Shown here: piece by piece, positions 1 through 59,095 of the stretch
Numbering within the stretch: the stretch's first letter is position 1
Layout of the letters: each line of letters begins with the position of its first letter
The notes under the pieces: model-generated
The model's database searches: none
Seen by the model: only the letters and a program-made list of their open reading frames with translations
Told to the model about the DNA's origin: nothing
From: Bacteroidota bacterium
GTDB lineage: Bacteria > Bacteroidota > Bacteroidia > UBA8524
Direction: 5' to 3'
DNA length: 64,000 nucleotides
NCBI GenBank assembly: GCA_008933805.1
Contig: WBUH01000011.1
Span: forward strand, 53,117 to 117,116
Position numbers and translations under genes: made by a program

Positions 1-1
1 A

Positions 2-472: not shown

Positions 473-479
473 ACTAAAG

Positions 480-530: not shown

Positions 531-549
531 TAAACTCGTCACCCAATCG

Positions 550-2545: not shown

Positions 2546-2561
2546 ATAAACTTTTCAGGGA

Positions 2562-4349
2562 TTATTCAACCAATAGTAACACCGATTTATTTACACCGTT
2601 CATAGTTATACGAACTGTGTAAGTACCGGTACTCATGTTTGATTTGCTGATATCAATAGGCAAGGTATTGCTTCCTTTTGCAAGGTCAACGCTGCCTGCA
2701 TAATACTGCCTGCCAAGCATATCATAAATGGCTACTTGTGCAGTGGTTGCACTCTCAACCTCTACCGAAACAGCAATGGCTTGCGTACCGGTTTGCATTG
2801 GGTTTGGAGCTACAACAGCTTGCTTATCGCCTTTAGGTTCAGCAGGAGCTACACGGGCATTGCTTCCGCTTGCCAGTGTATTTGCATAGCAAATATTAGC
2901 ATCGTAAGCATTGGTATTTCTCCATTTCATTTTAGCATCAGGCACCAGTTTGTCAACAAAGTTTACACCGGTAGTAGCATAAATTTTTGGCCCGCTGATA
3001 ATGGGCACATCAACGATTATTTGATTGCAAGGAGTTTCGCCGTTAAAGTAGGCTTTCACCAAATACATATCATAGTTACCGTTAATTACAGGGCCTGAAG
3101 CACCTTCCCTAAAGCCAAATACGCTAATACCATCGGCACCTGTACCGTTGTATTGATCGATAGCAATACCATAATCAATACGGCCATCGCCATAGGTAAA
3201 CTGACCGAAACCGCTGGTAGAACCACCGTCTTCAATTTTATCTACCAATATGTCATAGTCGCCCAAAAGGCCCCTGTACACATATCCGGCAGCATAATAT
3301 TCAAAATTACCCGATGTGTTTTTGCGTTCGATAATATCGTTACACACGTTTTGTGTACCGGGATTACCGTTATAATCGTGCAGGGTAGCCCACAAGGTAT
3401 TACCCACGTGGTCGGTTTTGTTCAACCAAACATCTTCGCTACCTGCCCTATCGCTGTAACCGCCTATAATGTAACCATCGCTACCGCCCTTAGTACTTTG
3501 GGCAATATCAATAGCATTAAACGATTCTGATGAGGCAGTAGTACCGTACAAGTTAACAGCAGCCATTGGGTTACCGTTAGCAGCATCCAACCTCAGCATA
3601 TAACCGTCAGGCAATGCTCCCGAAACGTTTTCGCGGGTTTCGCCCACAACAACTATTTCTTTGTTTCCGGTAGGTGAATAAGGGCTGGTGATAACGTCTT
3701 TACCAAATGCAATACCGGCACCTGAACTGTAAACGATATCATAAATACCGCTCCATACAAGTCCGCCGGAGTTTACATCAATCATCATGGCAAAGGGGTC
3801 TAAAGTACCGCTGGTAGTAGTTACAGTTCCTGTAACATACACTTCGTTACCGCCTGTGAAGATAGATTCGTAAATACCTCCTACAGAAATAACATCCTGT
3901 CCTGTACCGCCACCTGCGGGTATATAGGTATAAATTACGCTTACGTTTCCGGCTTGGTCCATCATTAAGTAAAACACCCCTGTAGTTGCAGGAAATACTG
4001 AATAATCAGCAAATTGGCCAATGATACCAAAACCATTACCGTTGTTCATTTCAAAGGCTTTTGATTCGCCCACATGAACTACGTTTCCGGTTACTGAGCT
4101 GATTAGAAAATACCAGCCGTTAAAATAGGGTGCTCCGGTAATATTACCGGTACCGTCGGTGCGTGAAACCGATAGCCCTTGCTGGCTATGATGGCCCACT
4201 AAGAAATGTCCCATGCTCGAAATAGCTGGGTCAGTGTTGATACCTGATGAAAGTTTTTGTCCGTCCGTAGTTCCATAGATGTGATGGAAATACTGTGCAT
4301 TTGCTGTTAACCCGGTTAACACCATTGCAATTAAGAATAGCTTTTTCAT
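2562..4349 (-). CDS. secreted T9SS type A C-terminal sorting domain protein, paralog 2
   Basis: ATG at 4347-4349 gives 'MKKLFLIAMVLTGLTANAQYFHHIYGTTDGQKLSSGINT'. The C-terminus 'VAPNPMQTGTQAIAVSVEVESATTAQVAIYDMLGRQYYAGSVDLAKGSNTLPIDISKSNMSTGTYTVRITMNGVNKSVLLLVE' is a Por_Secre_tail. Long blocks are identical to paralog 3. Confidence 0.8.
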   Translation of the reverse strand: MKKLFLIAMVLTGLTANAQYFHHIYGTTDGQKLSSGINTDPAISSMGHFLVGHHSQQGLSVSRTDGTGNITGAPYFNGWYFLISSVTGNVVHVGESKAFEMNNGNGFGIIGQFADYSVFPATTGVFYLMMDQAGNVSVIYTYIPAGGGTGQDVISVGGIYESIFTGGNEVYVTGTVTTTSGTLDPFAMMIDVNSGGLVWSGIYDIVYSSGAGIAFGKDVITSPYSPTGNKEIVVVGETRENVSGALPDGYMLRLDAANGNPMAAVNLYGTTASSESFNAIDIAQSTKGGSDGYIIGGYSDRAGSEDVWLNKTDHVGNTLWATLHDYNGNPGTQNVCNDIIERKNTSGNFEYYAAGYVYRGLLGDYDILVDKIEDGGSTSGFGQFTYGDGRIDYGIAIDQYNGTGADGISVFGFREGASGPVINGNYDMYLVKAYFNGETPCNQIIVDVPIISGPKIYATTGVNFVDKLVPDAKMKWRNTNAYDANICYANTLASGSNARVAPAEPKGDKQAVVAPNPMQTGTQAIAVSVEVESATTAQVAIYDMLGRQYYAGSVDLAKGSNTLPIDISKSNMSTGTYTVRITMNGVNKSVLLLVE

Positions 4350-4481
4350 GCTTTTGATAGATAGTTTAAATTGTTCTAAAAGAACTTTTTGCAAGTTATA
4401 GCAAATTAAATCATAAAAAAAACAACTTTCAACAAACGCAGTAACCACAAGGGTTTAAGCCATGTCAACTTAAAAAACAAA

Positions 4482-4512
4482 AAGGGTGGCTGCGTTGCAC
4501 ACAGCCACCCTT
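4482..4512. terminator. rho-independent terminator (gggtggctg-cgttgcaca-cagccaccc) with a T-run on the minus-strand transcript
   Basis: A 9-bp GC-rich stem. The - strand transcript continues into 'tttttgtttttt' (the complement of 4471-4483). It lies downstream of the gene ending at 4538. Confidence 0.7.
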
Positions 4513-4537
4513 GTATAATTATGCGTTATAGTGCTAA

Positions 4538-6328
4538 TTATTCAACTAGCAGTAACACCGATTTGTTTTCACCGTTCATGGTTATACGAAGTGTATAGGT
4601 ACCTGCACTCATGTTTGATTTGCTGATATCAATAGGCAAGGTATTGCTTCCTTTTGTCAGGGTAACGCTACCTGTATAGTATTGTCTGCCCAGCATATCA
4701 TAAATAGCTAGTTGCGCAGTGGTTGCACTTTCAACCTCTACCGAAACAGCAATGGTTTGCGCACCGGTTTGCATTGGGTTGGGTGCTACAACAGCTTGTT
4801 TATCGCCTTTAGGTTCAGCAGGAGCAACACGGGCATTGCTGCCTGCACCAAGGCTGGTAGCAAAACAAATATTCAGGTCGTTTGCTGTGGTTTGTCCCCA
4901 ATTAAAAAGGGTTAATGGCACCAAGCGGTCAACCAAATTTGCCGACACAGATGTCATTAGTCCGGGGCCTGATGCATTAATAGCATCCACTATTTTTTGA
5001 TTGCAAGGAGTTTCACCGTTAAAGTAGGCTTTCACCAAATACATATCATAGTTACCGTTAATAACAGGAGAGCTGTATGCTTCACGGAAACCAAACACGC
5101 TGATACCGTCTGCACCGGTTCCATTGTATTGGTCGATGGCAATACCGTAATCGGTAAACTTATCACCGTAGGTAAACTGCCCCATTCCGGTGCTTACCCC
5201 CATATCGTTGGTTTTCACAACCACCATGTCATACGTTCCTCCCATCAAACCATTACGCACATAACCTGCGGCATAGTACTCATATTTACCGCCGGTATTC
5301 AAACGTTCAATCACATCGTTACAAACATTCTCAGTACCACCGTTGCCGTTATAATCATGCAAGCTGGCCCAAAGCGAGCCCAAGGTTTGGTCGGTTTTCA
5401 CCAGCCAAAAATCTTCGCTGCCGTTAACGTCGCTGGCTCCGCCTAAAATAAAGCCATCGCTACCTCCTGCGGTAGCATTTGCTATGCTTATAGAGTTAAT
5501 CTCATCCGTTGATGATGTTGTACCGTAAATATCGGCAGCACCTGTAACGGGAATTCCTGTGCTTGCATCAACACGCAAACTGAACGCATCAGGCAATGAA
5601 CCGCCTGTGGGGTCGTATAATTGCCCTACAAGTACTGCCTCGTCAACACCGTTTGGTGTATATGGACTTTCAATAATATCCCTGGAATATGCATAAGCCG
5701 AGCCTGCACCTGAAGCCAGTTGTATATCATATATCCACGACCACCTGATACCGCCCGAAGTCATATCAAGTTTCATTGCATAGGCAAATACATTACTGCC
5801 TCCGTAAGCAGAACCTGTAATGTATATATCTTTTCCGCTGCTTAGCACTGATTCTGCAACACCGCCAACATTAAAAATATCAATAACAGTTGTTACACCC
5901 GATGGCACATAAGTAAAGATGTTTGATACACCGCCTGCAGGGGTTAGTTGCATATAGAAAATACCTGTGTTAGGTGCGCCAAGACTTAAATCTTGGAACT
6001 TTCCAACAATACCAAAACCTCCGCCATTGTCCATTTCAAACGCCTCTGATTCCTCAACAAAAACCTGTGAGCCTGTAATTGGACTAAAAAGGGTGTACCA
6101 TCCGTCAAAATAAGGTGCTCCAGTCACGTTTCCTGTAACATCAGTACGAGAAACTGCCAGCCCGTTTTGGCCGTTATGGCCTACCAAAAAATGACCTAAG
6201 CCAAGTGCGTTGGTGTTAATACCCGATGATAGCTTTTCTCCATCCGTTGTCCCGTAAATGTGATGGAAATACTGCGCTTTTGCTGTTAACCCTGTTAACG
6301 CCAAAATAATTAATAGAATTTTTTTCAT
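4538..6328 (-). CDS. secreted T9SS type A C-terminal sorting domain protein, paralog 3
   Basis: It starts 'MKKILLIILALTGLTAKAQYFHHIYGTTDGEKLSSGINT'. The last ~250 residues are nearly identical to paralog 2 (for example 'YEYYAAGYV', 'YDMYLVKAYFNGETPCNQ', 'ARVAPAEPKGDKQAVVAPNPMQTG'). It ends in a canonical T9SS tail '...GTYTLRITMNGENKSVLLLVE'. Confidence 0.8.
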   Translation of the reverse strand: MKKILLIILALTGLTAKAQYFHHIYGTTDGEKLSSGINTNALGLGHFLVGHNGQNGLAVSRTDVTGNVTGAPYFDGWYTLFSPITGSQVFVEESEAFEMDNGGGFGIVGKFQDLSLGAPNTGIFYMQLTPAGGVSNIFTYVPSGVTTVIDIFNVGGVAESVLSSGKDIYITGSAYGGSNVFAYAMKLDMTSGGIRWSWIYDIQLASGAGSAYAYSRDIIESPYTPNGVDEAVLVGQLYDPTGGSLPDAFSLRVDASTGIPVTGAADIYGTTSSTDEINSISIANATAGGSDGFILGGASDVNGSEDFWLVKTDQTLGSLWASLHDYNGNGGTENVCNDVIERLNTGGKYEYYAAGYVRNGLMGGTYDMVVVKTNDMGVSTGMGQFTYGDKFTDYGIAIDQYNGTGADGISVFGFREAYSSPVINGNYDMYLVKAYFNGETPCNQKIVDAINASGPGLMTSVSANLVDRLVPLTLFNWGQTTANDLNICFATSLGAGSNARVAPAEPKGDKQAVVAPNPMQTGAQTIAVSVEVESATTAQLAIYDMLGRQYYTGSVTLTKGSNTLPIDISKSNMSAGTYTLRITMNGENKSVLLLVE

Positions 6329-14204: not shown

Positions 14205-14320
14205 GTTTTGCTAACAGGCATAAAGCCCATACTGTTGCGCCCATCGTCCCGAATGATTTTAAACCATTCGGGATGAACCATTAAAAAGCAGCGGGTTTTA
14301 TACCCGTCGAGAAAATTGGT
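14205..14320. repeat. compound-hairpin dispersed repeat (MITE/REP-like), copy 1 of 4 in the window
   Basis: It contains 'ggcataaagccc', the palindrome 'cgtcccgaatg-attttaaaccattcgggatg' and 'cgggttttatacccg'. It is ~85-90% identical to 14962-15080. Confidence 0.7.
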
Positions 14321-14961: not shown

Positions 14962-15080
14962 TCTTATTCTGACGGGCATAAAGCCCATCGCTGTTGCGCC
15001 CATCGTCCCGAATGGTTTAAAACCATTTGGGACGAACCATTAAAAAGCGGCGGGTTTTATACCCGTCGGAACAATAGATT
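14962..15080. repeat. compound-hairpin dispersed repeat, copy 2 (direct relative to copy 1)
   Basis: 'gacgggcataaagcccatcgctgttgcgcccatcgtcccgaatggtttaaaaccatttgggacgaaccattaaaaagcggcgggttttatacccgtcgg' aligns to 14205-14320. Confidence 0.7.
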
Positions 15081-44569: not shown

Positions 44570-44680
44570 ACACGGGCCTGAATATAAAATTCAGGCCTTT
44601 TGCGGATTTATCCCCAATGGTTTAAAAGCATTCGAGATAAACCATTGAGCAAAACACGGGCTTTATGCCCGTTGCCACAA
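44570..44680. repeat. compound-hairpin dispersed repeat, copy 3
   Basis: 'cctgaatataaaattcaggcc', 'ccccaatggtttaaaagcattcgag...aaccattg' and 'cgggctttatgcccg' are the same modules as at 58965-59090 and 14205/14962. Confidence 0.65.
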
Positions 44681-44736
44681 CCGTTGTAAAAAACCTACAT
44701 CATAATTCAACCAAAACCCTGTATTTTGAAACCACA

Positions 44737-47163
44737 ATGCCCGCTAATACACAAGCTGCAATTAATTGGTTTTCATCGCTGGGCTGGACTCCCCAAAAGT
44801 TCCAGCAACAGGCTTGGAACGCCTATTTGCAAGGTAAAAGCGGATTGGTTAATGCCCCTACAGGCAGCGGCAAAACATACAGCCTATTGATACCCGCCCT
44901 ATTAGAAGGGCTGGCCAATGGCACACAACCAACCACCAAAGGCTTGCAGCTTATTTGGCTCACCCCTATAAGGGCATTGGCGAAAGAAATTGAACTATCT
45001 GCCCGCAGGGCTATTGCCGGGCTGGGCAGCACGTGGGAGGTGGGCATCCGCACGGGCGACACTTCTACCAAAGAGCGGACTAAGCAAGCCAAACAAATGC
45101 CGCAAATACTGATTACCACACCTGAAAGTTTACACCTGATGTTTTGCCAAAAGGGGAATAGCGAGCTATTTAAAAATCTTAAGTGTGTGGTGGCCGATGA
45201 ATGGCACGAGTTGGTAGGCAGTAAACGCGGAGTACAAGTTGAACTGGCACTCAGTCGTTTAAAAAAAACATCTAATCAACTGAAAATATGGGGAATATCT
45301 GCGACAATTGGCAACATGGACCAAGCCCGAGAGATTTTGCTGGGCACAGACTATTACCCCCAATCGGTGCTTGTAAAATCCGATATTAAAAAGAAGGTGA
45401 TTGTTGAAACCGTTTTCCCTGATGAGATTGAAAATTTCCCTTGGGCGGGTCATTTAGGAATAAAACTGCTTGAGAAGGTAGTCCCTATTATAGATGAAGG
45501 CAAAAGCACGCTACTGTTTACCAATACCCGCGCACAAAGCGAGATTTGGTACCAGCGCTTACTGGATGCCGCTCCCCACCTTTCGGGCATTATGGCTTTG
45601 CACCACGGCAGCATTGGACTTGAGCTTCGCCACTGGGTAGAGGAGCAACTGCACATAGGCAACCTAAAAGCAGTGGTTTGCACCAGCAGTCTTGATTTGG
45701 GAGTAGATTTTCGCCCTGTGGAAACCATTATCCAAATTGGCAGCCCCAAAGGTGTTGCCCGCTTTTTGCAACGGGCAGGACGAAGCGGACACCAACCGGG
45801 AAAGCCCAGTAAAATCCACTTTGTACCCACTCACTCGCTGGAGATAATAGAAGGTGCCGCCCTGCGCGAAGCCATTAAACAAGGGATGATGGAAGATCGT
45901 ATTCCCTTTGTACGCAGTTTTGATGTGTTGGTGCAATACTTGGTTACACTGGCCGTTGGCGAAGGATTCCGCGCACAAGAAGTATATGAAGAGATAACAA
46001 CCACCTTTTGCTACAGCAGCATAAGTTCCGAAGAATTTGAGTGGGTGTTGAGATTTATCGTTTCAGGGGGCGATAGCCTTCAAGCGTATGATGAATACCA
46101 CAAAGTAGTAATTGAAAACGGCTTGTTTAAGGTAGAAAGCAGGCAAATAGCCATGCGTCACCGCCTTTCTATCGGCACAATTGTGAGCGACGCCGTTTTA
46201 CGCGTAAAATTTTTAAGCGGAAAAAACATAGGCACTATTGAAGAGTCGTTTATCAGCAAATTACGTCCCGGCGACACTTTTTGGATAGCAGGCCGCAACC
46301 TTGAATTGATACAAGTGAAGGAAATGGATGTATTGGTGCGAAAATCAGACGGAAAAAAAGGGATAACGCCCAGTTGGGGCGGGGGTAGGATGCCCCTATC
46401 ATCACAGCTTTCTGAAATGTTGCGCCACAAACTGCACACCGCAAGCACCAGCAACGAGGAGGAAGTGAAACTGCTGCGTCCGTTGTTTGATATGCAAAAC
46501 AAACTCTCGATTGTTCCCAACGAAAACCAGTTTTTGATTGAGAAGTTTACTACCAATGAGGGTTGCCATGTTTATTTTTACCCTTTTGAAGGCCGTGCCG
46601 TGCATGAGGGGATGGCGGCCTTGTTGGCTTTCCGTTTGGGGCATTTTAAAAACTTCAGCTTTAGCATTGCGATGAACGACTACGGGTTTGAACTCCTTAG
46701 CGACCAAGACATTCCCATTGAGCAAGCGGTGGATAGCGATATTTTTACGCTCGACCATTTGTTTGCTGATATACGCGCCAGTATAAACGATACCGAGATG
46801 GCCCGCCGTAAGTTTGCAGAGATTTGCAAAGTAGCAGGATTGGTATTTCAGGGCTATCCGGGTAAAGGAATAAAGGAACGCCATTTGCAATCATCGTCGC
46901 AATTGTTTTTTGATGTGTTCCACGAGCATGAACCCGATAATTTATTACTGAAACAAGCCTACGAGGAGGTGTACGACTTTCAGCTGGAGCAAACCCGTAT
47001 GCAAAAGGCTATGGAGCGCATTAACCGACAAGAGATAATTATCCGGTATCCTTCACAACCTACACCGTTTTCATTCCCCATTATGGTTGACCGCCTGCGT
47101 GAAAAATACAGCAACGAGCCCATTGAGGAGCGTATCAAAAAGATGAAACTGGAGTTTGATTAG
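44737..47163 (+). CDS. Lhr-like DEXH-box ATP-dependent helicase (ligase-associated/Lhr-core type)
   Basis: 'FQQQAWNAYLQGKSGLVNAPTGSGKT' (motif I), 'VVADEWHEL' (DExH), 'LFTNTRAQSE', 'HHGSIGLELR', 'SSLDLGVDF', 'QRAGRSGH' (motif VI). The start is taken at ATG 44737 because ATG 44665 lies inside the repeat hairpin 'cgggctttatgcccg'. Confidence 0.8.
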   Translation: MPANTQAAINWFSSLGWTPQKFQQQAWNAYLQGKSGLVNAPTGSGKTYSLLIPALLEGLANGTQPTTKGLQLIWLTPIRALAKEIELSARRAIAGLGSTWEVGIRTGDTSTKERTKQAKQMPQILITTPESLHLMFCQKGNSELFKNLKCVVADEWHELVGSKRGVQVELALSRLKKTSNQLKIWGISATIGNMDQAREILLGTDYYPQSVLVKSDIKKKVIVETVFPDEIENFPWAGHLGIKLLEKVVPIIDEGKSTLLFTNTRAQSEIWYQRLLDAAPHLSGIMALHHGSIGLELRHWVEEQLHIGNLKAVVCTSSLDLGVDFRPVETIIQIGSPKGVARFLQRAGRSGHQPGKPSKIHFVPTHSLEIIEGAALREAIKQGMMEDRIPFVRSFDVLVQYLVTLAVGEGFRAQEVYEEITTTFCYSSISSEEFEWVLRFIVSGGDSLQAYDEYHKVVIENGLFKVESRQIAMRHRLSIGTIVSDAVLRVKFLSGKNIGTIEESFISKLRPGDTFWIAGRNLELIQVKEMDVLVRKSDGKKGITPSWGGGRMPLSSQLSEMLRHKLHTASTSNEEEVKLLRPLFDMQNKLSIVPNENQFLIEKFTTNEGCHVYFYPFEGRAVHEGMAALLAFRLGHFKNFSFSIAMNDYGFELLSDQDIPIEQAVDSDIFTLDHLFADIRASINDTEMARRKFAEICKVAGLVFQGYPGKGIKERHLQSSSQLFFDVFHEHEPDNLLLKQAYEEVYDFQLEQTRMQKAMERINRQEIIIRYPSQPTPFSFPIMVDRLREKYSNEPIEERIKKMKLEFD

Positions 47164-48467
47164 CTCCAAAACCATCGGGAATAAATCCTGATGCTATTGA
47201 TAGCAGGTTAGGGTCTGACCGCAACCCGTCATTCCCAACTTGATTGGGAATCTCACTTTTCGACCCCTACACGATTAATTATTAGGCCGACATGCCCATA
47301 GTCGCCTTCCCCTGTAGGGAAGGAAAAGTTAAAGGCTGTCTGCAAAACAGATAGTCAGGAAGGGGGTCAAAGGGTTGCGCGCGGCTTCCCTCCTTGCTAA
47401 AGCCTGTGGGAGGGAAAGGAGGGACTGAGGGAGGTGTGTTACCTAAACCCATCGGGAATAAATCCCGATGCTATTGATAGAATGTTGAGCACTCTATCTA
47501 TAGCGGCAGGTCTGCGAACCTGCCGACCAAAGACCCCATCCCGATTAATTCTTAGCCCGACATTCCCACACTCGCCTTCCCCTGAAAAGTTAAAAGCTGT
47601 CTGCAAAACAAATAGCCAGGAAGGGGTTAGGTTTTTAACTCGCCCCCGAAACTTCCCTTAGCTAGACTTTCAAATAGTCGCCCCTCTCTATATTTAGAGA
47701 GGAAAAGTTTGTTAGTCGCACAATTATCAATCATTCTGGGGTGAGTTAAAATTCTTTTCACGACCACCCCTAACCCTTCCTTTTCCCTACGCTCATACTT
47801 CGACAAGCTCAGTATTGATGCCTTGCAAAGGAGGGGAACAACCGCACAGGCTCACTAACCCAAAATGGTGGCAGCTATAAAAAATATCATTCGGCGTTCA
47901 ATGTCCCCCTCAATGAAGGGGTAGGGGGAGGATTTTTCCCCCTCCTGCACCTCCCAAAGGGAGGAGATTGGAGTGCTAATTGTGCCCATCAAAGCAATCC
48001 GTTTGTTTACCCTCATCCCAGAAAAGCACAGCTTCGCCCGAATATTAGCCAATCCCTTCTCCACATGGAGAAGGGCGACGTGCAAGTGTGGTTAGAGAAC
48101 TGGTTGCTAAGATGAGGCAAAAGCCACCACGACCACCCCTAGCCCCTCCTAAAAACAGGAGGGGAACAACCGCACAGGCTCACCAGCCCAATAATAACGG
48201 CAGTTATTAAAACTCGTTCGGCGTTCAAGGGCTATGCGCGGGGCTTCCCTCCTTGGATAAGGAGGGACAGAGGGAGGTTTGAACACTGGTTGCGGGGATG
48301 AGGCGGCCCAGCGCGTCGCATTTCCCCTCCTACGGTGGGCAGTGGGTGGTTTAGGAGGGGACTAAGGGGTGGTCAGAATAGTGGAAACGTGGGCTATTCC
48401 ACAATTATCAAATGGTCAGGGGTGAGTTAAAACAGGCACAAGCAGGACGCTAGCGGAGGTTATGTTT
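47164..48467. repeat. 1.3-kb non-coding mosaic of at least 5 short repeat families in direct and inverted copies, rich in G/C hairpins
   Basis: There is a ~275-bp tandem duplication (47164-47439 vs 47440-47650: 'ccatcgggaataaatccYgatgctattgatag...gccgacatNcccaNaNtcgccttcccctg...aaagNtgtctgcaaaacaNatagNcaggaagggg'). 'cacgaccacccctaRcccYtcc...aggaggggaacaaccgcacaggctcacYaRcccaa...ttcggcgttcaa' occurs at 47757 and 48123, with an inverted copy 'ggaggggactaaggggtggtcag' at 48350. 'gcgcggcttccctccttg...ggagggaNagagggaggt' occurs at 47380 and 48237. 'caattatcaaNNNtcNggggtgagttaaaa' occurs at 47722 and 48400. Confidence 0.75.
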
Positions 48468-49646
48468 CTATTGTTCGTTTTGCTTAATTTCTTTTTTTAC
48501 TTGATCAATAAACATACGAGGGTTCCAACCTTTTATTAAACCTTCTAATATATAAGAGTCAAACATAGTAAGCCCTAAACCACTAATACTTGGTGGGATA
48601 GGTAGACTACTTAAAGAAGATACATATTCCCCCAATGCATACATACCGAATGTTTTCATAAACTTACCCTTACCTTCTTCAAAAAAACCCTTTTTATTTG
48701 CTATTACATCTATGTATTCTCTTACTATTTCTTCTGGGGGTACAGTAATGGATTTAGCGTTTATCCATTTTCTGTACTCTTTTATGTTTTTATTATTCCG
48801 TAATTCAAACGCCCTATTAAAAGGTATCTTTTTTTGTAAAAAAAGAGAATAAATATCAGGTAAGGTTTCTTGCTTCAGAATTTCACCCGTGCCTTCAGAA
48901 ACACCTAATGCACTTCTAATGTGTCTAATACTTTCGTCTGTTAGCCGATAATAATTATATTTATTATAACTCTTATACTTCTTTTCAGCTAATACGGTTG
49001 TTTCTAATATTTGTGACCCTAAATCTAATAAGATGGTTCTTTGTGTGCTATCCAATTCTTCCGCAGCTTTTTCAAAAGGCAAATCAAACTCTGCTAGCCG
49101 GTTATTGTTATAAGCATCTAATACAATGCTCACTGCATTAGAAGAGATATTTTTTTCTGGTAGTTTATACTGCTTAAGCGCTTTTCTCTTGAAAATTCTT
49201 TTCCTGTCTCTATGAAGACCCGTAATTTTTAAAAGAAGGTTGTCAATATTTTTTTCAGGGTCACTATCGTTTTCTGTAAAACTCCCAGCTATTAATGGCG
49301 GAGTTCCTATTGCCGCCGTGTAATCAATCGGTCCATTAGCGTCCTCCTGATGACCTGTTACTGCTGCAATAACTGGTGTCCACAAAACAAGTTGAATAAT
49401 ATCTTTCTCCAAAAGCTCTTCAACTTTATTTAATCCTAATTCGCGGATAAGAAAATATAATGATAAATTATCTCGTTCTACTTTTATAGCTATTTTGTCA
49501 AATAATAGGAACTGTTCGAAAAGTAGTGCTAATAAACGTTGCTTAACTATTTCTTCTGATGGCGAGTTTTGGGGTATTGGGGCGATTTTTTGTATGAATT
49601 GTTGCCCATAAAGTTCAACTTCTGGATTAAAAACTATATCTGCCAT
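48468..49646 (-). CDS. orphan hypothetical protein in a strongly AT-rich (low-GC) gene, likely horizontally acquired
   Basis: 392-aa ORF. Its nucleotide composition is visibly far more AT-rich than all neighbouring genes (for example 'tttcttttttacttgatcaataaacatacgag...ttttattaaaccttctaatatataagag'). No signal peptide and no motif I can assign. It is bounded by the 1.3-kb repeat mosaic on its 3' side. Confidence 0.55.
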   Translation of the reverse strand: MADIVFNPEVELYGQQFIQKIAPIPQNSPSEEIVKQRLLALLFEQFLLFDKIAIKVERDNLSLYFLIRELGLNKVEELLEKDIIQLVLWTPVIAAVTGHQEDANGPIDYTAAIGTPPLIAGSFTENDSDPEKNIDNLLLKITGLHRDRKRIFKRKALKQYKLPEKNISSNAVSIVLDAYNNNRLAEFDLPFEKAAEELDSTQRTILLDLGSQILETTVLAEKKYKSYNKYNYYRLTDESIRHIRSALGVSEGTGEILKQETLPDIYSLFLQKKIPFNRAFELRNNKNIKEYRKWINAKSITVPPEEIVREYIDVIANKKGFFEEGKGKFMKTFGMYALGEYVSSLSSLPIPPSISGLGLTMFDSYILEGLIKGWNPRMFIDQVKKEIKQNEQ

Positions 49647-49752
49647 TATTTTATAAAGACTTCCATGTAAAAATACAAAATTCCCCCGATAATCTCCCCT
49701 CCCTCACCCAAATCTCACCCCACAATTACAAAAACTTTTTACCTTCGCCAGT

Positions 49753-52700
49753 ATGAAAATACTGCTGCCTGTTTTTCTTTCATTTATTACAATAAGCGCA
49801 TTCGCACAAGACAAACCCAAGTGGGACGTTAGCAACCCGCCGGGGCCGTATAAAGAAGTTACCATCACCACCCACGAGGGTACGTGGATGAACCTCGACG
49901 TGAGCCCCGATGGCAACACCCTTGTATTTGATATGCTGGGCGATATATACAGCCTGCCCGTTGCGGGCGGCACAGCCGCGCTGTTACGCGGCGGTCATGC
50001 CTTTGAGGTGCAGCCCCGCTTTAGTCCCGATGGTAAAAAAATATGCTTTACCAGCGATGCAGGCGGCGGCGATAACGTGTGGGTGATGGATGCCGACGGT
50101 AAAAACGCCAAACAAATTACCCAAGAAGATTTCCGTTTGCTAAACAACCCCGTGTGGACACCCGACGGGCAATACATTATTGCGCGCAAGCATTTTACCA
50201 GCAGCCGTTCATTAGGCGCGGGCGAAATGTGGATGTACCACATCACTGGCGGCAGCGGCATACAGCTTACCAAACGCAAAAACGACCAGCAGGACGTGAA
50301 CGAGCCAGCCCTTTCGCCCGATGGCCGCTACCTGTACTTTAGCGAGGATATGTACCCCGGCGGCTATTTCCAGTACAACAAAGACCCCAACAGCCAGATA
50401 TACATCATTCGCCGTTACGACCGCGAAACAGGCGAATTGCGAGACCTTATCAGCGGGCCCGGCGGTGCTTGCCGTCCCCAAGCCAGTCCTGACGGAAAAC
50501 AACTGGCTTTTGTGCGCCGTGTACGCACCCAAACCGTGCTGTACGTGCACAACCTGCAAACGGGGCAACAAATCCCCGTGTTTGATAAACTAAGCAAAGA
50601 CCAGCAAGAAGCATGGGCCATTTTCGGTGTGTACACAGGCTACAACTGGCTGCCCGATAACATCCACATCGTTATTTGGGCGCAGGGCAAGCTGTGGAAG
50701 ATAAACACCCAAACCCAACAAGCGGCTGAAATTCCGTTTACGGCCACCGCCACGCACCGTATACACGATGCGGTGAAATTCAGGCAGGAAGTGTCGCCCT
50801 CCACCTTCGAGGCCAAAATGATACGCCACGCCATCACCTCTCCCGACGGGAAAACCCTTGTGTTCTCTGCCGTAGGTTATTTATGGAAAAAAGAATTGCC
50901 CAACGGAACGCCTGTGCGCCTCTCTACCCAAGCCGATGCGTTTGAATTTGAGCCTGTTTTCAGTCCCGATAATAAAAAACTGTTATACGTTACGTGGAAC
51001 GATACCACCACGGGTGCTATTTGGGAATACGAGTTTAAAAAAGGAAAAACCAAAAAAATAACTACTGAAAAAGGTATTTTCCGCGAGCCCGCTTACTCGT
51101 CTGACGGTAAAAAAATAGTGTACCGCAAAGAAGGTGGCAACGACCACCAAGGCTTTACCTATTGCGAAAATACTGGCATATATATAGCCGATACCGATGG
51201 TAAAAACGTACAGTTAGTTAGCGAAGACGGGAGCAATCCTGTTTTTACTGCCGATGGAAAAAATATTTATTACCAACAGGGTAAAAAGTATTTCGAGGTG
51301 GATTTATCGGGCAATAACAAAAAAGAATTATTTACTTCAGAGTACGGAAAAGACTACACCCCAAGTCCCGACGGAAAATGGATAGCCTTTACCGATTTGC
51401 ACAAAGCCTACATTATCCCTGTTCCAAAATCGGGCAAAACCTTTGATTTGAACCGCAACACCAAAGCCGTGCCCGTTTCGCAAGTAGCACGCGATGCCGG
51501 TTTCAACCTGCATTGGAGCGGCGATAGCAAAAAACTGCATTATACATTGGGCGAAGAATATTTTACGGTAGAAATTAAAAACCGTTTCCTTTTTGTAGAG
51601 GGTGCAGCCGATAGCATTGTACCCGTTGATACCGTTGGGATAAAAATAGGTTTGCAATTAAAAACCGATAAACCCGCAGGTACAAAACTGCTTACCAATG
51701 CCCGCATAATCACCGTTGATAATAATAACAACGTGATAGAAAACGGGTATATTTTAATTAAAGACAATATTATCACCGATATAGGCTTGATGACCGATGT
51801 TTGGAAAACCAGCCCCAAAGCGGATGATACCATTGATTGCAGCGGCAAAACCATTATGCCCGGTTTGGTGGATGTACACGCGCATTTGGGTACTTTCCGT
51901 CAAGGCTTGCACCCGCAAAAACACTGGCCATACTATGCAAGTCTGGCATACGGAATCACCACCACGCACGACCCCAGCAGTAACAGCGAAATGGTATTTA
52001 CCCAAAGCGAGATGGTGAAATATGGCAGTATGATTGGTCCCCGTGTATACTCAACAGGGACGATATTGTACGGTGCCGACGGCGATTTTAAGGCCGTGGT
52101 AAATAGTTTAGAGGATGCTAAATCGGCGATACGTAGGACTAAAGCATTGGGTGCTTTTTCGGTGAAAAGCTACAACCAACCTCGCCGCGAGCAACGCCAG
52201 CAGGTGATTGAAGCAGCCCGTCAGTTGAGCATCATGGTAGTACCCGAAGGCGGTTCGTTCTTCTACCACAACATGAGCATGATTTTAGACGGCCATACGG
52301 GCATTGAACACAACATACCCGTTGCTCCTGCATATAATGACGTAATACAACTGTGGAGTGCCAGCCAAACGGGATACACGCCCACGCTGATTGTAAACTA
52401 TGGCGGCGTAAACGGCGAATATTACTGGTACCAGCACACCAACGTGTGGGAAAAGGAACGTTTGCTCAACTTTACCCCTCGCGGCATTATTGACGAGCGC
52501 AGCCGCCACCGCACCATGATACCCGAAGAAGAATACGAAAACGGGCACATTTTGGTAAGTAAGTCGTGCAAACAACTAAGCGATAGCGGTGTGAAGGTGA
52601 ATTTGGGCAGTCATGGACAGATACAAGGCATTGGCGCACATTGGGAACTATGGATGCTGGCACAGGGCGGTATGAGTGCGATGGAAGCCATACGCAGTGC

Positions 52701-53010
52701 TACGATGAACGGTGCGCAATACATCGGCATGGGCGACCAAATAGGCAGCCTTGAACCCGGTAAACTGGCCGATTTGCTGATTATGGATAAAAACCCGCTG
52801 GATACGATTACTAATACCGAAAGCCTTCGCTACACTATGATAAACGGCCGTTTATACGATTGCAATACGCTGAACGAAGTAAACAGCCCTAAAAAACGCG
52901 CACCGTTTTGGTGGGAAAACAATGGCTACAACGCCACCTTCCATTGGCACGAAGAAACCAACAGCTTTATGCCCACCCAATGCGGTTGCGGCGGCCATCA
53001 CGGGGAGTGA
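49753..53010 (+). CDS. secreted TolB-like PD40 beta-propeller repeats fused to a C-terminal metal-dependent amidohydrolase domain
   Basis: Signal peptide 'MKILLPVFLSFITISAFAQ'. Repeated 'SPDG(K/N)xLVF...D...Y' PD40 units are present (about 10). The C-terminal 'GKTIMPGLVDVHAHLG...' (HxH metal site) plus the later 'VNLGSHGQIQG' and 'ADLLIMDKNPL' are amidohydrolase-family motifs. 1085 aa. Confidence 0.8.
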   Translation: MKILLPVFLSFITISAFAQDKPKWDVSNPPGPYKEVTITTHEGTWMNLDVSPDGNTLVFDMLGDIYSLPVAGGTAALLRGGHAFEVQPRFSPDGKKICFTSDAGGGDNVWVMDADGKNAKQITQEDFRLLNNPVWTPDGQYIIARKHFTSSRSLGAGEMWMYHITGGSGIQLTKRKNDQQDVNEPALSPDGRYLYFSEDMYPGGYFQYNKDPNSQIYIIRRYDRETGELRDLISGPGGACRPQASPDGKQLAFVRRVRTQTVLYVHNLQTGQQIPVFDKLSKDQQEAWAIFGVYTGYNWLPDNIHIVIWAQGKLWKINTQTQQAAEIPFTATATHRIHDAVKFRQEVSPSTFEAKMIRHAITSPDGKTLVFSAVGYLWKKELPNGTPVRLSTQADAFEFEPVFSPDNKKLLYVTWNDTTTGAIWEYEFKKGKTKKITTEKGIFREPAYSSDGKKIVYRKEGGNDHQGFTYCENTGIYIADTDGKNVQLVSEDGSNPVFTADGKNIYYQQGKKYFEVDLSGNNKKELFTSEYGKDYTPSPDGKWIAFTDLHKAYIIPVPKSGKTFDLNRNTKAVPVSQVARDAGFNLHWSGDSKKLHYTLGEEYFTVEIKNRFLFVEGAADSIVPVDTVGIKIGLQLKTDKPAGTKLLTNARIITVDNNNNVIENGYILIKDNIITDIGLMTDVWKTSPKADDTIDCSGKTIMPGLVDVHAHLGTFRQGLHPQKHWPYYASLAYGITTTHDPSSNSEMVFTQSEMVKYGSMIGPRVYSTGTILYGADGDFKAVVNSLEDAKSAIRRTKALGAFSVKSYNQPRREQRQQVIEAARQLSIMVVPEGGSFFYHNMSMILDGHTGIEHNIPVAPAYNDVIQLWSASQTGYTPTLIVNYGGVNGEYYWYQHTNVWEKERLLNFTPRGIIDERSRHRTMIPEEEYENGHILVSKSCKQLSDSGVKVNLGSHGQIQGIGAHWELWMLAQGGMSAMEAIRSATMNGAQYIGMGDQIGSLEPGKLADLLIMDKNPLDTITNTESLRYTMINGRLYDCNTLNEVNSPKKRAPFWWENNGYNATFHWHEETNSFMPTQCGCGGHHGE

Positions 53011-53039
53011 TTTATTTATGATTTTTGACTTGTTGATTT

Positions 53040-53388
53040 GGAGATTTAATTCCCGTCTGTGCGTCATTGCGAACGGGTTTTAAAATAATTATTGAATTAT
53101 AAATAAAAGATTAGTGAAGCAATCCCAATGAAACGATACAAACGGATTGCTTCGTCAGCCGAAGACGGCCTCCCCGCAATGACGACTCGGCGTTCGTCAT
53201 TACAAGCGTCAAAATCAATTATACCCGAAACCAAAAAATAATAGCGAAGCAATCTTATACTATCTTTACAAAAAGATTGCTTCGGCAAGCTACGCAAGCC
53301 TCGCAATGACGATAGTTGCTCGAAAAGACAGAAACTTTGCGTCATTGCGAGGAGGTACGACGAAGCAATCCGTTGCCACAGAAATAAA
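53040..53388. repeat. cluster of short palindromic repeat units (core 'ggattgcttcgtcagccgaagacggcctcc[t/c]cgcaatgacg...cgtcattgcgag') upstream of the GIY-YIG gene
   Basis: Repeated 'gattgcttcg' / 'cgaagcaatc' inverted pairs occur at 53111, 53146, 53237, 53273 and 53361. 'cgcaatgacg'/'cgtcattgcg' hairpins occur at 53176/53201, 53301/53340 and 53061. Confidence 0.7.
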
Positions 53389-53700
53389 ATGAAACGTGTC
53401 GGCTATACTTACATTCTAACAAATGCTAATAACACCACATTATATGTTGGGGTTACTGCTGATTTGATGAAAAGAATGGAGGAGCATATTAATAAGAAGT
53501 TTCCCAATAGTTTTTCAGCAAAATACAATTTAACAACGCTGGTTTGGTTTGAAGGGTTTAACCACATAGAAGAAGCCATTGCAAGAGAAAAACAATTAAA
53601 AGCAGGGAGTAGAAAACGAAAAGAGGAGTTGATAAATACTATAAATCCCAAGTGGGAAAATTTATACCTCAAGATTATTTCGGGGGAGATTGAGGTTTAA
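53389..53700 (+). CDS. GIY-YIG nuclease family protein (small, stand-alone)
   Basis: 'GYTYILTNANNTTLYVGVTADLMKRMEEH' matches the GIY...YIG motif and spacing of small GIY-YIG (UPF0213-like) proteins. 103 aa, embedded in the palindromic repeat cluster. Confidence 0.7.
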   Translation: MKRVGYTYILTNANNTTLYVGVTADLMKRMEEHINKKFPNSFSAKYNLTTLVWFEGFNHIEEAIAREKQLKAGSRKRKEELINTINPKWENLYLKIISGEIEV

Positions 53701-54070
53701 CTTTGGGATTGCTTCGTCGCCCGAAGACGGCCTCCTCGCAATGACGAACTTTGGCCGCCACCTCGTCATTGCGAACAGGTAATTTCAAAAAGCAGGAAAT
53801 TATATATTTTGGTTAGTGAAGCAGTCTTTTGAAATAATTCATTGGGATTGCTTCGTCAGCCGAAGACGGCTTCCTCGCAATGACGGCTCGGCGTTCGTCA
53901 TTGCGAGCGGCAAAACCAATTATACCTGAAAACCAAAAAATAATAGCGAAGCAATCTTTAACGACCTTTACAAACGGATTGCTTCGTTGACCTAAGAAGG
54001 TCTCCTCGCAATGAACGAACGCCGAGCAGGCTTAACAATTAGCCTATAACCCTCCCCGCAATTACCGTAA
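53701..54070. repeat. continuation of the palindromic repeat cluster downstream of the GIY-YIG gene (at least 3 more units)
   Basis: 'gggattgcttcgtcgcccgaagacggcctcctcgcaatgacgaac...cgtcattgcgaac' at 53705. 'gggattgcttcgtcagccgaagacggcttcctcgcaatgacggctcggcgttcgtcattgcgagcg' at 53843. 'ggattgcttcgttgacctaagaaggtctcctcgcaatgaacgaacgccgag' at 53966. 'tagcgaagcaatc' at 53944. Confidence 0.7.
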
Positions 54071-54142
54071 AACCAAGTCTTTAGTAACAAGCAGTTGAAC
54101 ATTACCCCATTTTGCGCTATTTTTGAGGGCATATAGATTTTT

Positions 54143-55414
54143 ATGTTACAGCTTAGCTATTTACGAGAGAACACAAACGAAGCCATAGAAAGGCTTAGTA
54201 AGAAAATTGCCAACGCAAAAGAAGGCGTAGAGGCTGTTTTGTTGGTTGACGACAAACGCCGCGCAGCACAAAAAGAGCTTGACGATGTTTTGGCAGTCTC
54301 CAACAAATTGGCTAAGGAAATTGGCGACTTGTACAAAAGCGGTCAGCGTGAAAAGGCCGACGAGCTAAAACAACAAACCGTCGTGCAAAAGGAGAAAGAA
54401 AAAACCCTTTTGGGGCAGCTTGAGAAACTGGAAGCCGAGTTGAAAGATGCTTTGGTGATATTGCCCAACGCCCCCAGTCCGATGGTGCCTGTGGGTCGCA
54501 CGCCCGAAGATAACGAGGTAGTAAAAACATGGGGAACGATGCCCGCTTTGCAAGAAGGAGCTAAACCCCACTGGGAACTTACCACCCAATACGATTTGAT
54601 TGATTTTGAAACCGGTGCTAAAATTACCGGAGCAGGTTTCCCTGTATACCGCGGCAAAGGAGCAAGGTTGCAACGCGCCCTTATTAACTTCTTTTTAGAC
54701 GAAGGGTTAAAAGCCGGATATTTCGAAATTCAACCACCGATTTTTATTAACGAAGACAGCGGTTTCGGTACCGGTCAGCTACCCGATAAAGAAGGACAGA
54801 TGTACCATATGCAGTTGGATAACTTGTACGCTATCCCAACGGCAGAGGTGCCCATTACCAACTTGTACCGCGATGTGATTGTGCGCGAGGATGAACTACC
54901 CATTAAAAACATGGGCTATACTCCTTGCTTCCGTCGCGAGGCAGGCAGTTATGGTAAAGACGTTCGCGGCTTGAACCGTTTGCACCAGTTTGACAAGGTG
55001 GAGATTGTGCAGGTAACCACTCCCGAAAAATCGTACGAAACGTTGGAGCAAATGAGCGAATACGTTCAAAGCCTGTTGCAAAAGCTTGAGCTGCACTACC
55101 GCGTATTGCGCTTGTGCGGTGGTGATATGAGCTTTGCCAGTGCCCTCACGTATGATATGGAGGTGTACAGCGCAGCCCAGCAACGTTGGTTAGAGGTGAG
55201 CTCGGTATCAAACTTTGAAACCTTCCAAGCCAACCGTTTGAAGTTGCGTTATAAAAACAGCGAGGGTAAAAATATCATCGCTCATACACTAAACGGCAGT
55301 GCGCTGGCGTTACCCCGTATTGTAGCTGCATTACTCGAAAACAACCAAACCCCTGACGGAATTGTGTTGCCCAAAGTATTGCACCCCTACACGGGCTTTG
55401 AAATCATAAAATAA
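54143..55414 (+). CDS. serS: serine--tRNA ligase
   Basis: 423 aa. The N-terminal coiled-coil arm is followed by a class II core ('TAEVPITNLY', 'CFRREAGSYGKDVRGLNRLHQFDKVE', 'GSALALPRIVAALLENNQ'). Confidence 0.9.
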   Translation: MLQLSYLRENTNEAIERLSKKIANAKEGVEAVLLVDDKRRAAQKELDDVLAVSNKLAKEIGDLYKSGQREKADELKQQTVVQKEKEKTLLGQLEKLEAELKDALVILPNAPSPMVPVGRTPEDNEVVKTWGTMPALQEGAKPHWELTTQYDLIDFETGAKITGAGFPVYRGKGARLQRALINFFLDEGLKAGYFEIQPPIFINEDSGFGTGQLPDKEGQMYHMQLDNLYAIPTAEVPITNLYRDVIVREDELPIKNMGYTPCFRREAGSYGKDVRGLNRLHQFDKVEIVQVTTPEKSYETLEQMSEYVQSLLQKLELHYRVLRLCGGDMSFASALTYDMEVYSAAQQRWLEVSSVSNFETFQANRLKLRYKNSEGKNIIAHTLNGSALALPRIVAALLENNQTPDGIVLPKVLHPYTGFEIIK

Positions 55415-58964: not shown

Positions 58965-59090
58965 CTCGTGGCAAAATTACCTGAATATAAAATTCAGGTC
59001 TTTAAACGGTAACGTCCCCAATGGTTTTAAACCATTGGGGACGTATCTATTAAAAGAGGCGGGCTTTATGCCCGTCGACAAAACGGGTTT
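58965..59090. repeat. compound-hairpin dispersed repeat, copy 4 (most complete copy)
   Basis: 'cctgaatataaaattcaggtc', 'cgtccccaatggttttaaaccattggggacg' (perfect 13-bp palindrome arms), 'cgggctttatgcccg'. Confidence 0.7.
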
Positions 59091-59095
59091 AATTT

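Follow-up and report, generated by a model that had tools for sequence, protein, structure and literature searches.

Between two convergent genes of a Cytophagales bacterium (Bacteroidota), positions 47164-48467 of the 64-kb stretch of DNA analyzed here (the window) hold 1.3 kb of intergenic sequence that is most probably a mosaic array, made of approximately 3 tandem, internally deleted copies of a lineage-specific, noncoding composite unit of ~0.45-0.55 kb, of the same kind as the repetitive extragenic palindromes (REPs) and bacterial interspersed mosaic elements (BIMEs), the Neisseria intergenic mosaic elements (NIMEs), or the BOX elements. Judged by its sequence, this region is neither a gene, nor an RNA gene, nor a CRISPR array; the unit appears as ~10 short, G+C-rich predicted hairpins and conserved boxes in a fixed order. 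As copies of this unit are found at many intergenic sites across the lineage, it is classed as a nonautonomous repeat that is REP/BIME-, NIME-, or BOX-like.

The modules recur in one cyclic order in a sister species

The region was split into modules M1 to M11 and the unique pieces U1 and U2 (Table 1), which were mapped on every related locus. Loci of a sister species were fetched by scanning metagenomes with a 27-nt core of M1; its 15 exact copies all fell in assembly OFDN01, distributed over 13 stretches and 9 contigs. A further locus, L086 (CALRQL020000008.1), was fetched by a genome scan with M3 and is conspecific with OFDN01 (96-97% nucleotide identity). The record of L086 is titled 'MAG: Agrobacterium sp. 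719_389', yet it has this identity to OFDN01 contigs with Cytophagales-type arrays; the title or the binning looks wrong. The single comparable orthologous gene is 80% identical between the window and OFDN01, which therefore represents a sister species, i.e., a different strain rather than the same one. Closer relatives were covered by a Logan contig identical to the window (L001) and a contig of a 99%-identical strain (L139), samples SRR10172992 and SRR27868865, as well as by a relative that is 90% identical across the orphan gene to the right of the array (L005; JGI 3300073936).

Modules were found at at least 14 intergenic loci of the sister species (OFDN01 metagenome and GTDB contig CALRQL020000008.1). 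The initial annotation had considered that the modules might have no other copies, which is not what the relatives display. In blastn comparisons with the related loci, nearly all of 47164-48012, 48157-48282, and 48377-48435 was matched, and 48013-48156 and 48283-48376 had no further copies there. Within the 64-kb window, the module family is found at one place only (blastn). Two short-read assemblies, independent of each other and from this same organism, end within the array: L001 stops at 47254, within one of its hairpins, and L139 stops 37 nt past the Lhr stop codon. Such breaks are expected where a sequence repeats elsewhere in those genomes.

Within each array, all modules are co-oriented, and a single cyclic order (M3-M1-M2-M4-M5-M7-M8-M9-M6, then M3-M1 again, with modules skipped) fits 8 of 9 arrays (L086, L128, L130, L131, L133, L134, L136, and L138). 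A near-complete unit with a period of 423 nt is present in L130 (4825-4402), and other arrays read M6 / M1-M2-M9-M6 / M3-M1-M2-M8 in L086, M1-M2 / M3-M1-M2-M9-M6 / M1 in L134, and M3-M1-M2-M8-M9-(M6) / M7-M8 in L133. The window reads M1-M3-M4-M5-M6 / M1-M2-M4-M5-M7-M8-M9-M10-M11-U1 / M9-M6 / U2-M8, and the replacement of M2 by M3 in its first unit is the single exception to the cycle. The co-orientation in one cyclic order therefore indicates tandem, deletion-riddled copies of a composite unit rather than free shuffling of modules. The internal deletions differ between arrays, and some of them are accounted for by internal direct repeats that would allow recombination: the box TTAGSCCGAC..TCGCC (direct family D2) is present in both M4 and M8, and in arrays without M5-M7 (L133 and L086), M4 and M8 are joined exactly at this shared box. 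Nesting occurs as well: where M9b has a simple CCCCTCCT/AGGAGGGG hairpin, that of M9a and its relatives encloses ~40 nt in its loop.

Copies in the window resemble counterparts in the sister species more than they resemble each other. For M4+M5, the window and L130 are 96% identical, compared to 88% between the 2 window copies; the corresponding values are 94% (L133) and 83% for M8, and 96% (L131) and 88% for M6, with the caveat that the best window-sister pair was chosen from several copies. Therefore, the repeats of the window do not stem from a local duplication. Moreover, noncoding copies that are 75-96% alike in genomes whose genes are ~80% identical imply that the similarity is somehow maintained, since neutral decay of an old duplication would not suffice. 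Ongoing copying, gene conversion, and selection are candidates for what keeps the copies alike.

Repeats and predicted hairpins within the region

A repeat search of the region detected 11 direct families and 5 long-range inverted pairs, in agreement with blastn against the window. The tandem 275-bp duplication described in the initial annotation is borne out as 3 aligned blocks of 85-93% identity (47168-47209/47445-47486, 90%, spacing 277; 47262-47314/47532-47584, 85%, spacing 270; 47323-47365/47584-47626, 93%, spacing 261), but it is block-wise, with changing spacings, and is interrupted by a substituted block (47210-47261 vs 47487-47531) and a 9-nt indel. It is too degenerate to be called by Tandem Repeats Finder (0 rows for the region). 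At least 4 other direct pairs, one of them also inverted, had been noticed before, and 4 were found: 47759-47901/48128-48228, 47376-47438/48235-48281, 48085-48118/48271-48304, and 47719-47751/48400-48432, the last with an inverted partner at 47633-47650. The hairpins quoted at that time are present as well, namely CTTCCCTCC...GGAGGGAA (8 of 9), CCTTCCC...GGGAAGG, and AGGGGGA...TCCCCCT. Altogether, 14 perfect stems (at least 7 bp, loops of 3-20 nt) were counted in the region, compared to 1.4 +/- 1.2 (maximum 5) in 300 dinucleotide shuffles and a median of 2 in same-size windows elsewhere in the 64 kb. The folding z-scores of its first 477 nt are -6.2 for the + strand and -5.5 for the - strand.

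M3 is a CGTC-tagged hairpin found across phyla

In CGTC-tagged REPs, a short palindrome with an 8-9 bp stem that opens with A-T pairs and a loop of 4-5 nt is tagged at one end by unpaired CGTC (or TGTC/CCTC) (Di Nocera et al. 2013, PMC3733652). The hairpin of M3 reads CGTC-ATTCCCAA-cttga-TTGGGAAT-c (47227-47252) and agrees with this structural definition in its tag (CGTC), its stem (8 bp, beginning with AT), and its loop (5 nt), so that M3, alone among the modules, qualifies as a CGTC-tagged REP by its predicted structure. In Neisseria, such REPs have been equated with dRS3 and are found grouped with repeats of other families in mosaic intergenic regions; CGTC REPs were found in 5 phyla in that survey, mostly in alpha-Proteobacteria, and none was reported from Bacteroidota (PMC3733652). 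The NTS, which contains dRS3 and reads CGTCATTCCCGCGMAVGCGGGAATCYRG, is bound as single-stranded DNA (ssDNA) and cut a few nt upstream by SsnA, a 94-aa single-domain GIY-YIG nuclease of a widespread family, whose gene is typically flanked by repeats of this kind (Chenal et al., PMC11893778). Compared by eye, M3 and NTS have the first 10 nt (CGTCATTCCC) and GGGAATC in common, and the inner stem is changed on both sides.

M3 occurs once in the window and is present in 9 of 14 related arrays. Its hairpin (pattern GATTCCCAAYNNRGTTGGGAATGAC; 25-nt GATTCCCAATCAAGTTGGGAATGAC) was found nearly identical at at least 120 loci in genome contigs, which, among the matches listed, include Pedobacter, Patescibacteria, Cloacimonadota, Armatimonadota, Planctomycetota, Chloroflexota, and Proteobacteria. 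Among these matches, the M3-type hairpin often lies ~20 nt from an oppositely oriented GTCATTCCCGCGAAAGCGGGAATC hairpin. The identity across phyla suggests horizontal spread of the 25-nt hairpin. Within the 1.3 kb, GTC is found no more than 4 nt from the 5' arm in 8 hairpins (+ strand, 3; - strand, 5), compared to ~0.4 expected by simulation, and several modules may thus be diverged relatives of the M3 hairpin class.

The window also contains another dispersed repeat of ~110 nt in 4 copies (14211-14309, 14969-15068, 44577-44689, and 58980-59092) with 74-91% identity in pairwise blastn. The core of this family is a CGTC-tagged palindrome, CGTCCCCAATGGTTTAAAACCATTGGGGACG, followed by the hairpin GGCGGGCTTTATGCCCGTCG, and one copy lies in the divergent intergenic region between DnaG and Lhr.

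A GIY-YIG gene in a second repeat-rich region

A second intergenic region rich in repeats (53010-54143) contains a gene for a small GIY-YIG protein (Table 1), at a distance of 5.1 kb from the array. The nearest solved structure is that of the UPF0213 protein 1zg2. The gene is flanked on both sides by a total of nine CGTCATTGCG(A/G)...GAAGCAATC hairpin repeats in both orientations (CGTCATTGCGA repeats). By analogy with the NTS-ssn-NTS layout, which it resembles, 53010-54143 is a candidate Ssn/SRM pair in Bacteroidota. The repeats around the gene (ATTGCGAGG) are of another type than those of the array; M11 corresponds to the 3' half of the 'GAAGCAATC' repeat type found around it at 53-54 kb. Among the 120 M3 loci listed from other phyla, 6 have a small GIY-YIG open reading frame (ORF), in 5 cases within 170 nt of the hairpin.

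These observations are consistent with a mechanism in which the hairpins would extrude in ssDNA and be processed by an enzyme that is specific for hairpins and acts in trans. Among candidate classes, Ssn-type GIY-YIG ssDNA nucleases, such as the putative one encoded 5 kb away, would come first, with a HUH/Y1 transposase as the alternative. We favor this mechanism because the unit begins with a hairpin of an enzyme-recognized class and because such a nuclease gene with tagged repeats is present. Array length may change in both directions through recombination or slippage among the internal direct repeats, and recombination between the M4 and M8 copies of the shared box would delete M5-M7. They would also act as recombination substrates and thereby create a hotspot of rearrangement and gene swapping. 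Any effect on the Lhr mRNA, as a 3' hairpin terminator or stabilizer, would be a by-product, and the arrays may be tolerated mainly downstream of genes.

Position and edges of the arrays

Nine of 12 scorable arrays lie 3' of a co-oriented gene and start 10-90 nt past its stop codon, and 7 arrays are located between convergent genes. The remaining 3 of the 12 are upstream of or divergent from genes, with the L130 array beginning ~25 nt from a start codon. Array edges fall at varying points of the module cycle. No terminal inverted repeats were found at the unit ends in the arrays compared; inverted arms of 13-18 nt are confined to the nested M7-M8 sub-element (13 nt in L130 and L133, perfect or with one base different), whose flanking bases have no visible duplication. 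A comparison of filled and empty sites between window 1-600 and L137 was uninformative, as the flanks are not collinear.

Several observations weigh against a mobile, dRS3-related composite repeat. The related arrays have ragged edges, without target-site duplications or a clean pair of filled and empty sites, and no act of mobility was observed. No transposase was identified in the 64 kb of genome covered, in which no systematic domain scan of all ORFs was made, and the 215 kb of related loci contain no GIY-YIG ORF. Copies elsewhere in the source genome are deduced from the assembly breaks, and U1 and U2, together ~210 nt, have no copies at other loci. The 23 copies of M1 in the window and related loci, as well as their near-invariance, are inflated by ascertainment, because the sister-species loci were fetched by the M1 core pattern; the M1 copies free of this search bias have 0-5 mismatches over 31 nt. 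M3 occurs only once per unit (at most once per unit in related arrays, and once in the 1.3 kb). In the window, neither the SRM pattern (HGTCWYN(0-2)YYVSBRHN(0-5)WNVSBRGN(0-2)RNCYNB) nor, even with 8 substitutions allowed, the NTS (membership limit 1 mismatch) had any match. The dRS3 pattern ATTCCC-N8-GGGAAT had 0 hits, and the single ATTCCC-N(7-10)-GGGAAT of the window is M3 itself, with N9. M3 fails these 3 patterns because of its altered inner stem and a loop that exceeds that of the NTS by 1 nt.

Alternative explanations

A closer functional relationship, in which the array would be a homolog of the Neisseria NIME/NTS system and its CGTC/GTC hairpins would be sites for Ssn-type GIY-YIG nucleases that cut incoming or replicating ssDNA and tune recombination and gene exchange, is unlikely. 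By analogy, it would agree with the 5' tag and both stem ends that M3 shares with NTS, with the 103-aa GIY-YIG gene 5 kb away and its CGTCATTGCGA repeats in NTS-ssn-NTS layout, with the GIY-YIG ORF beside M3 in 5 of the 120 listed loci from other phyla, and with a gene adjacent to the array that was swapped between relatives exactly at the array edge. However, a single M3 in 1.3 kb differs from dRS3 around every unit, the SRM, dRS3, and NTS patterns are unmatched, the repeats at the GIY-YIG gene (ATTGCGAGG) are unlike those of the array, and the evidence for gene swapping comes from a single locus.

It is improbable that the array encodes one or more structured RNAs, or that it serves as a cis-acting Lhr 3' untranslated region that terminates transcription or shields the mRNA from 3' exonucleases, as proposed for REPs. 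The frequent location just past the stop codon of a co-oriented gene and the very stable predicted fold would suit such a role, as would the similarity of M6 to Rfam whalefall-1 and the terminator-like score of M3 in a simple scan; hairpin H3, with 9 G-U vs 3 A-C cells on the array strand, is the sole hint of a strand-specific constraint. However, the opposite strand folds nearly as stably, modules are freely deleted between copies, and a quarter of the scorable arrays is not located 3' of a gene. Furthermore, terminator-like sites are not above shuffle expectation, and the counts of a combined promoter and terminator scan stay within it. The Rfam scan of the whole window at gathering score returned nothing, a permissive scan of the region gave sub-threshold noise (whalefall-1, miRNA, and CRISPR-DR), and a search for tRNA and tmRNA found none. 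In a covariation test, 95% of the cells of 16 aligned M1+M2 copies are paired, but 193 of 500 shuffles perform as well, and 2 of 368 cells are compensatory; since this alignment lies partly inside the fetching pattern, its invariance is partly due to ascertainment. The structured noncoding RNAs that the initial annotation had listed as an option, with Infernal/Rfam as the check, thus found no support either in a family at gathering score or in covariation above shuffles.

Membership of M6 in whalefall-1 (RF01762) was considered separately and rejected, since M6a and M6b (bit scores in Table 1) stay below the gathering score of 37 and lack the 23-nt internal segment of the model. M6 does have the same type of hairpin (UCCCUCCUUGG...GGAGGGAC) and a purine tail (AGAGGGAGG), and the matching stretches are 47384-47436 and 48243-48279. 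The whalefall-1 motif might itself be a repeat element of the hairpin class of M6.

A local scar, i.e., a recent segmental duplication that decayed after the rearrangement separating Lhr and PdeM, or a decayed gene, is highly improbable. It would account for the synteny break, for the absence of PdeM from the window, and for U1 and U2 being unique to the locus. However, most of the sequence recurs at unrelated loci, the 2 window copies are not the nearest relatives of one another, and there is no significant protein similarity to neighbor genes; the reading as scar or pseudogene is refuted by the dispersal of the copies and by the lack of a remnant in tblastn. Still less credible is an integron-like attC array or a cluster of attC sites lacking an integrase (CALIN), with the M7-M8 inverted repeat TTTTAAC...GTTAAAA as attC and the orphan as cassette, or a CRISPR array. 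The 13-18 nt inverted repeat around the ~120-nt M7-M8 element and the exchangeable AT-rich orphans next to it recall an integron, but M7 is missing beside most copies of M8, there is no alternation of ORFs and sites, a comparable site is lacking at the far boundary of the swapped gene, and no integrase was seen beside the element. In agreement with the initial annotation, CRISPR was rejected due to the irregular spacing (186-859 nt), the lack of a tandem call by Tandem Repeats Finder, and Rfam CRISPR-DR matches with E ~9.

Instability of the locus

In the relatives L003, L140, and L141, Lhr is followed by its partner PdeM (Metallophos), with differing insertions between the two: a 194-aa gene, a gene for a 1351-aa PKD/Por-tail protein, and repeat DNA. 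One relative has other CGTC-type repeats at this place. PdeM is missing from the entire 64-kb window (tblastn), and the right flank (orphan, then amidohydrolase) belongs to another neighborhood. The junction 3' of Lhr is a recurrent insertion site in the clade.

Comparing the locus among relatives, as had been proposed in the initial annotation, revealed 2 further changes. In L005, an IS3-family element (rve integrase; L005 11321-12386) lies within the orthologous array at window ~48320, and the contig ends there. In L133 (5424-6600, compared with window 48436-49835), a different AT-rich gene (29% G+C, 341 aa, weak DnaJ-like N-terminus) occupies the same slot on the opposite strand. The two loci share GGGGTGAGTTAAAACA as array end on one side of the slot and the 5' end of the amidohydrolase gene on the other, with the amidohydrolase segment beginning at TTTTTACCTTCGCCAGTATG. 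The amidohydrolase segment of L133 is 95% identical to the window over 100 nt, with the first ~85 nt of the gene kept and the remainder deleted. On the sequence level, this points to gene replacement plus deletion, bounded by the array end.

NIME arrays in Neisseria have been proposed as recombination substrates beside exchangeable genes. We likewise infer that the locus is a hotspot of rearrangement and gene swapping, as seen at this one locus. The "integration hotspot or scar" of the initial annotation is hence upheld circumstantially in its first part, by the synteny break, the IS3 insertion in the L005 array, and the gene swap in L133, whereas a local scar or pseudogene conflicts with the dispersal of the copies.

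Comparison with known repeat systems

Judged by their defining features, the array is not a member of BIME, NIME, SRM/NTS, MITEs (miniature inverted-repeat transposable elements), CRISPR, attC, or whalefall-1. The BOX elements of Streptococcus have the structure boxA-boxB(n)-boxC, and BOX-type families of 7 sub-sequences occur in S. suis (PMC3049150). Like the array, BOX elements are composite, noncoding, dispersed repeats of ~50-150 nt modules in fixed order with variable module content, which amount to 67-637 bp in total, fold strongly, and are intergenic, often 3' of operons (PMC3049150). Fixed-order modules with variable content in intergenic DNA were found in 8 of 9 arrays. However, BOX has terminal inverted repeats and target-site duplications and is MITE-like, whereas the array has neither at the unit level and has ragged edges; moreover, its units are tandem-iterated and G+C-rich relative to the genome.

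NIMEs resemble the array as long intergenic arrays of different repeat families with an ATTCCC...GGGAAT hairpin and a CGTC 5' tag (PMC1797815, PMC11893778), which lie beside variable or exchangeable genes, attract insertion sequences, and occur in genomes with a small GIY-YIG gene and CGTC-tagged repeats. In contrast, each RS element of a NIME is flanked by dRS3 on either side, and over 100 RS families combine freely, whereas the array has one such hairpin per ~450-nt unit, with one M3 in 1.3 kb, and ~10 modules in fixed order. The spacer is N9 instead of N8 in dRS3, the inner stem is AAC/GTT instead of GCG/CGC, and the host is a Cytophagales bacterium.

With REPs and BIMEs, the array shares short, imperfect extragenic palindromes, mostly downstream of genes or between convergent genes, in mosaic clusters (PMC3733652, PMC2817692). 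BIMEs, however, are REPs that alternate in orientation with short linkers, whereas the array consists mostly of non-REP boxes, all modules are co-oriented, and the GTC-tagged hairpins (3 + / 5 -) have no regular alternation. The "very large REP/BIME-like array" of the initial annotation therefore holds insofar as the modules are dispersed at many loci in relatives and M3 is a CGTC-tagged REP, but the array is not built as a BIME; it consists of tandem, deleted copies of one ordered unit. No REP-associated tyrosine transposase (RAYT) was seen in a search that covered the 64 kb only. In cyanobacteria, Elhai and colleagues reportedly described small dispersed repeats (SDR) in 2008 as short hairpin repeats of 21-27 nt, independent units that are inserted in one another. 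The ~40 nt of M9a within a hairpin loop are similarly nested, but here such nesting plays a small part within a larger ordered unit.

Flanking genes and coding capacity

The region separates the Lhr helicase gene (+) on the left from an AT-rich orphan gene (-) on the right. The longest ORFs in 47164-48467 are 75-76 aa (47434-47661 + and 47855-48085 -), and no gene remnant was detected by tblastn with PdeM and further neighbor proteins of Lhr or the orphan from relatives (best E = 0.55), in line with the absence of a plausible ORF stated previously. At 50%, the G+C content of the region exceeds that of the window (44%) and of the orphan gene (33%), which does abut the region as had been reported. 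The Lhr protein has Pfam matches to WH_Lhr, DEAD_assoc, DEAD, and Helicase_C; its closest named relatives are Cyclobacteriaceae and Chryseolinea-like bacteria, which places the host in the Cytophagales (Bacteroidota), and the nearest relatives overall are 85-86% identical. Its stop codon is TAG (47161-47163), and M1a begins 3 nt downstream.

The orphan gene had 0 Pfam, NCBIfam, or PADLOC hits. Its AlphaFold model (pLDDT 79, pTM 0.77) matched no PDB fold with E < 0.1, and exact-protein look-ups found no record matching the orphan or the amidohydrolase. The orphan family is patchy in Bacteroidota (Ferruginibacter, Chitinophaga), and one distant relative (30% identity) is labeled uncultured Pseudomonas. 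Elsewhere in the window, 3 adjacent genes of ~600-650 aa (550-6328, -) are paralogs that are 70-73% identical at the nucleotide level over long stretches. Comparison of the whole region with plasmids and phages (blastn) gave no match, and viral contigs scanned with 3 modules gave 0 hits.

Table 1. Modules of the array, unique pieces, and genes discussed in the text, with positions in the window.
Feature	Position	Strand	Description	Remarks
Lhr	44665..47163	+	Lhr-type DEXH helicase gene (flank)	Array directly 3' of stop codon; usual partner PdeM missing
M1a	47166..47209	+	Hairpin CATCGGGA-ataaa-TCCTGATG, then GCTATTGATAG	Direct repeat
M3	47221..47261	+	CGTC-tagged REP, dRS3/NTS-like hairpin; core 47227-47252 CGTCATTCCCAACTTGATTGGGAATC	8-bp stem, 5-nt loop
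M4a	47262..47306	+	Box ...CGATTAATTATTAGGCCGACATGCCCATAGTCGCC	Direct-repeat families D1, D2
M5a	47307..47366	+	Long hairpin CTTCCCCTG...AGGAAGGGG, nested CTGTCTG/CAGATAG hairpin	Direct-repeat family; additional 9-nt arm forms CCTTCCC/GGGAAGG; 89% identical to L130
M6a	47372..47440	+	GGCTTCCCTCC...GGAGGGAA/AAGGAGGGAC and TGAGGGAGGTG tail	whalefall-1-like, sub-threshold (15.9 bits); 96% identical to L131
M1b	47445..47486	+	M1 copy 2	Direct repeat
M2	47487..47531	+	3' arm of GCTATTGATAG/CTATCTATAGC hairpin, and hairpin CGGCAGGT/ACCTGCCG	17-19 copies elsewhere
M4b	47532..47576	+		Direct repeat of M4a
M5b	47577..47627	+	Hairpin CCTTCCCCTG...CAGGAAGGGG	M4b+M5b 96% identical to L130
M7	47628..47655	+	Left inverted-repeat arm TTTTAACTCGCCCCCGAA of nested M7-M8 sub-element	Inverted pairs I1, I2
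M8a	47656..47751	+	Box TTAGCTAGACTTTCAAATAGTCGCC, hairpin CCTCTCTA/TAGAGAGG, then GTCGCACAATTATCAA...GGGGTGAGTTAAAA	94% identical to L133
M9a	47759..47903	+	CACGACCACCCCTAACCC...GGAGGGGAACAACCGCACAGGCTCAC...TTCGGCGTTCAA	~40 nt more than M9b, nested in hairpin loop
M10	47904..47991	+	TCCCCCT/AGGGGGA and ACCTCC/GGGAGG hairpin cluster	One other copy: L133 9466-9577
M11	47992..48012	+	AAGCAATCCGTTTGTTTACCC	100% identical to L002 21745-21765
U1	48013..48127	+	Perfect 10-bp hairpin CCCTTCTCCA/TGGAGAAGGG	No other copy in sample
M9b	48128..48228	+	Short M9, simple hairpin CCCCTCCT/AGGAGGGG	
M6b	48231..48282	+	GGCTTCCCTCCTTGgataAGGAGGGAC and AGAGGGAGGTT	whalefall-1 21.9 bits (gathering score 37)
U2	48283..48376	+	CGTCGCATT and hairpin TCCCCTCCTA/TAGGAGGGGA	Common only to orthologous locus L005
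M8b	48377..48435	+	3' part of M8, ends in GGGGTGAGTTAAAA	Last shared sequence before swapped AT-rich gene
Orphan gene	48468..49646	-	AT-rich (33% GC), 392 aa (flank)	No family assignment
GIY-YIG gene	53389..53700	+	Single-domain GIY-YIG protein, 103 aa; candidate trans-acting partner	PF01541 E = 1.5e-15

Significance

The kind of element is known, and the ordered ~0.45-kb unit and its Cytophagales host are new. Since this kind of element is well known, the finding is incremental rather than surprising. NIME-like arrays were stated to be unknown outside Neisseria in 2007 (PMC1797815), and the role of Ssn-related hairpins outside Neisseria was left open in the Ssn study (PMC11893778). In practical terms, such arrays break short-read assemblies (2 cases here), yield spurious small ORFs, and mark synteny breakpoints, and recognizing the ordered unit allows for masking and for its use as a strain marker. 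The locus furthermore provides a concrete case from Bacteroidota that unites a mosaic array containing a dRS3-type hairpin, a neighboring candidate Ssn gene, and a gene replacement exactly at the array edge, and the proposed link between arrays and gene exchange is therefore testable at this locus. More speculatively, and by analogy, Cytophagales could carry a working counterpart of the NTS/Ssn-NIME system, in which arrays seeded by a dRS3-like CGTC hairpin would be processed as ssDNA by small GIY-YIG nucleases and would mark sites of exchange for AT-rich foreign genes, a scenario that we consider doubtful. If true, the 25-nt hairpin, nearly identical from Patescibacteria to Planctomycetota, would be the footprint of a widely transferred partnership between ssDNA nucleases and repeats.

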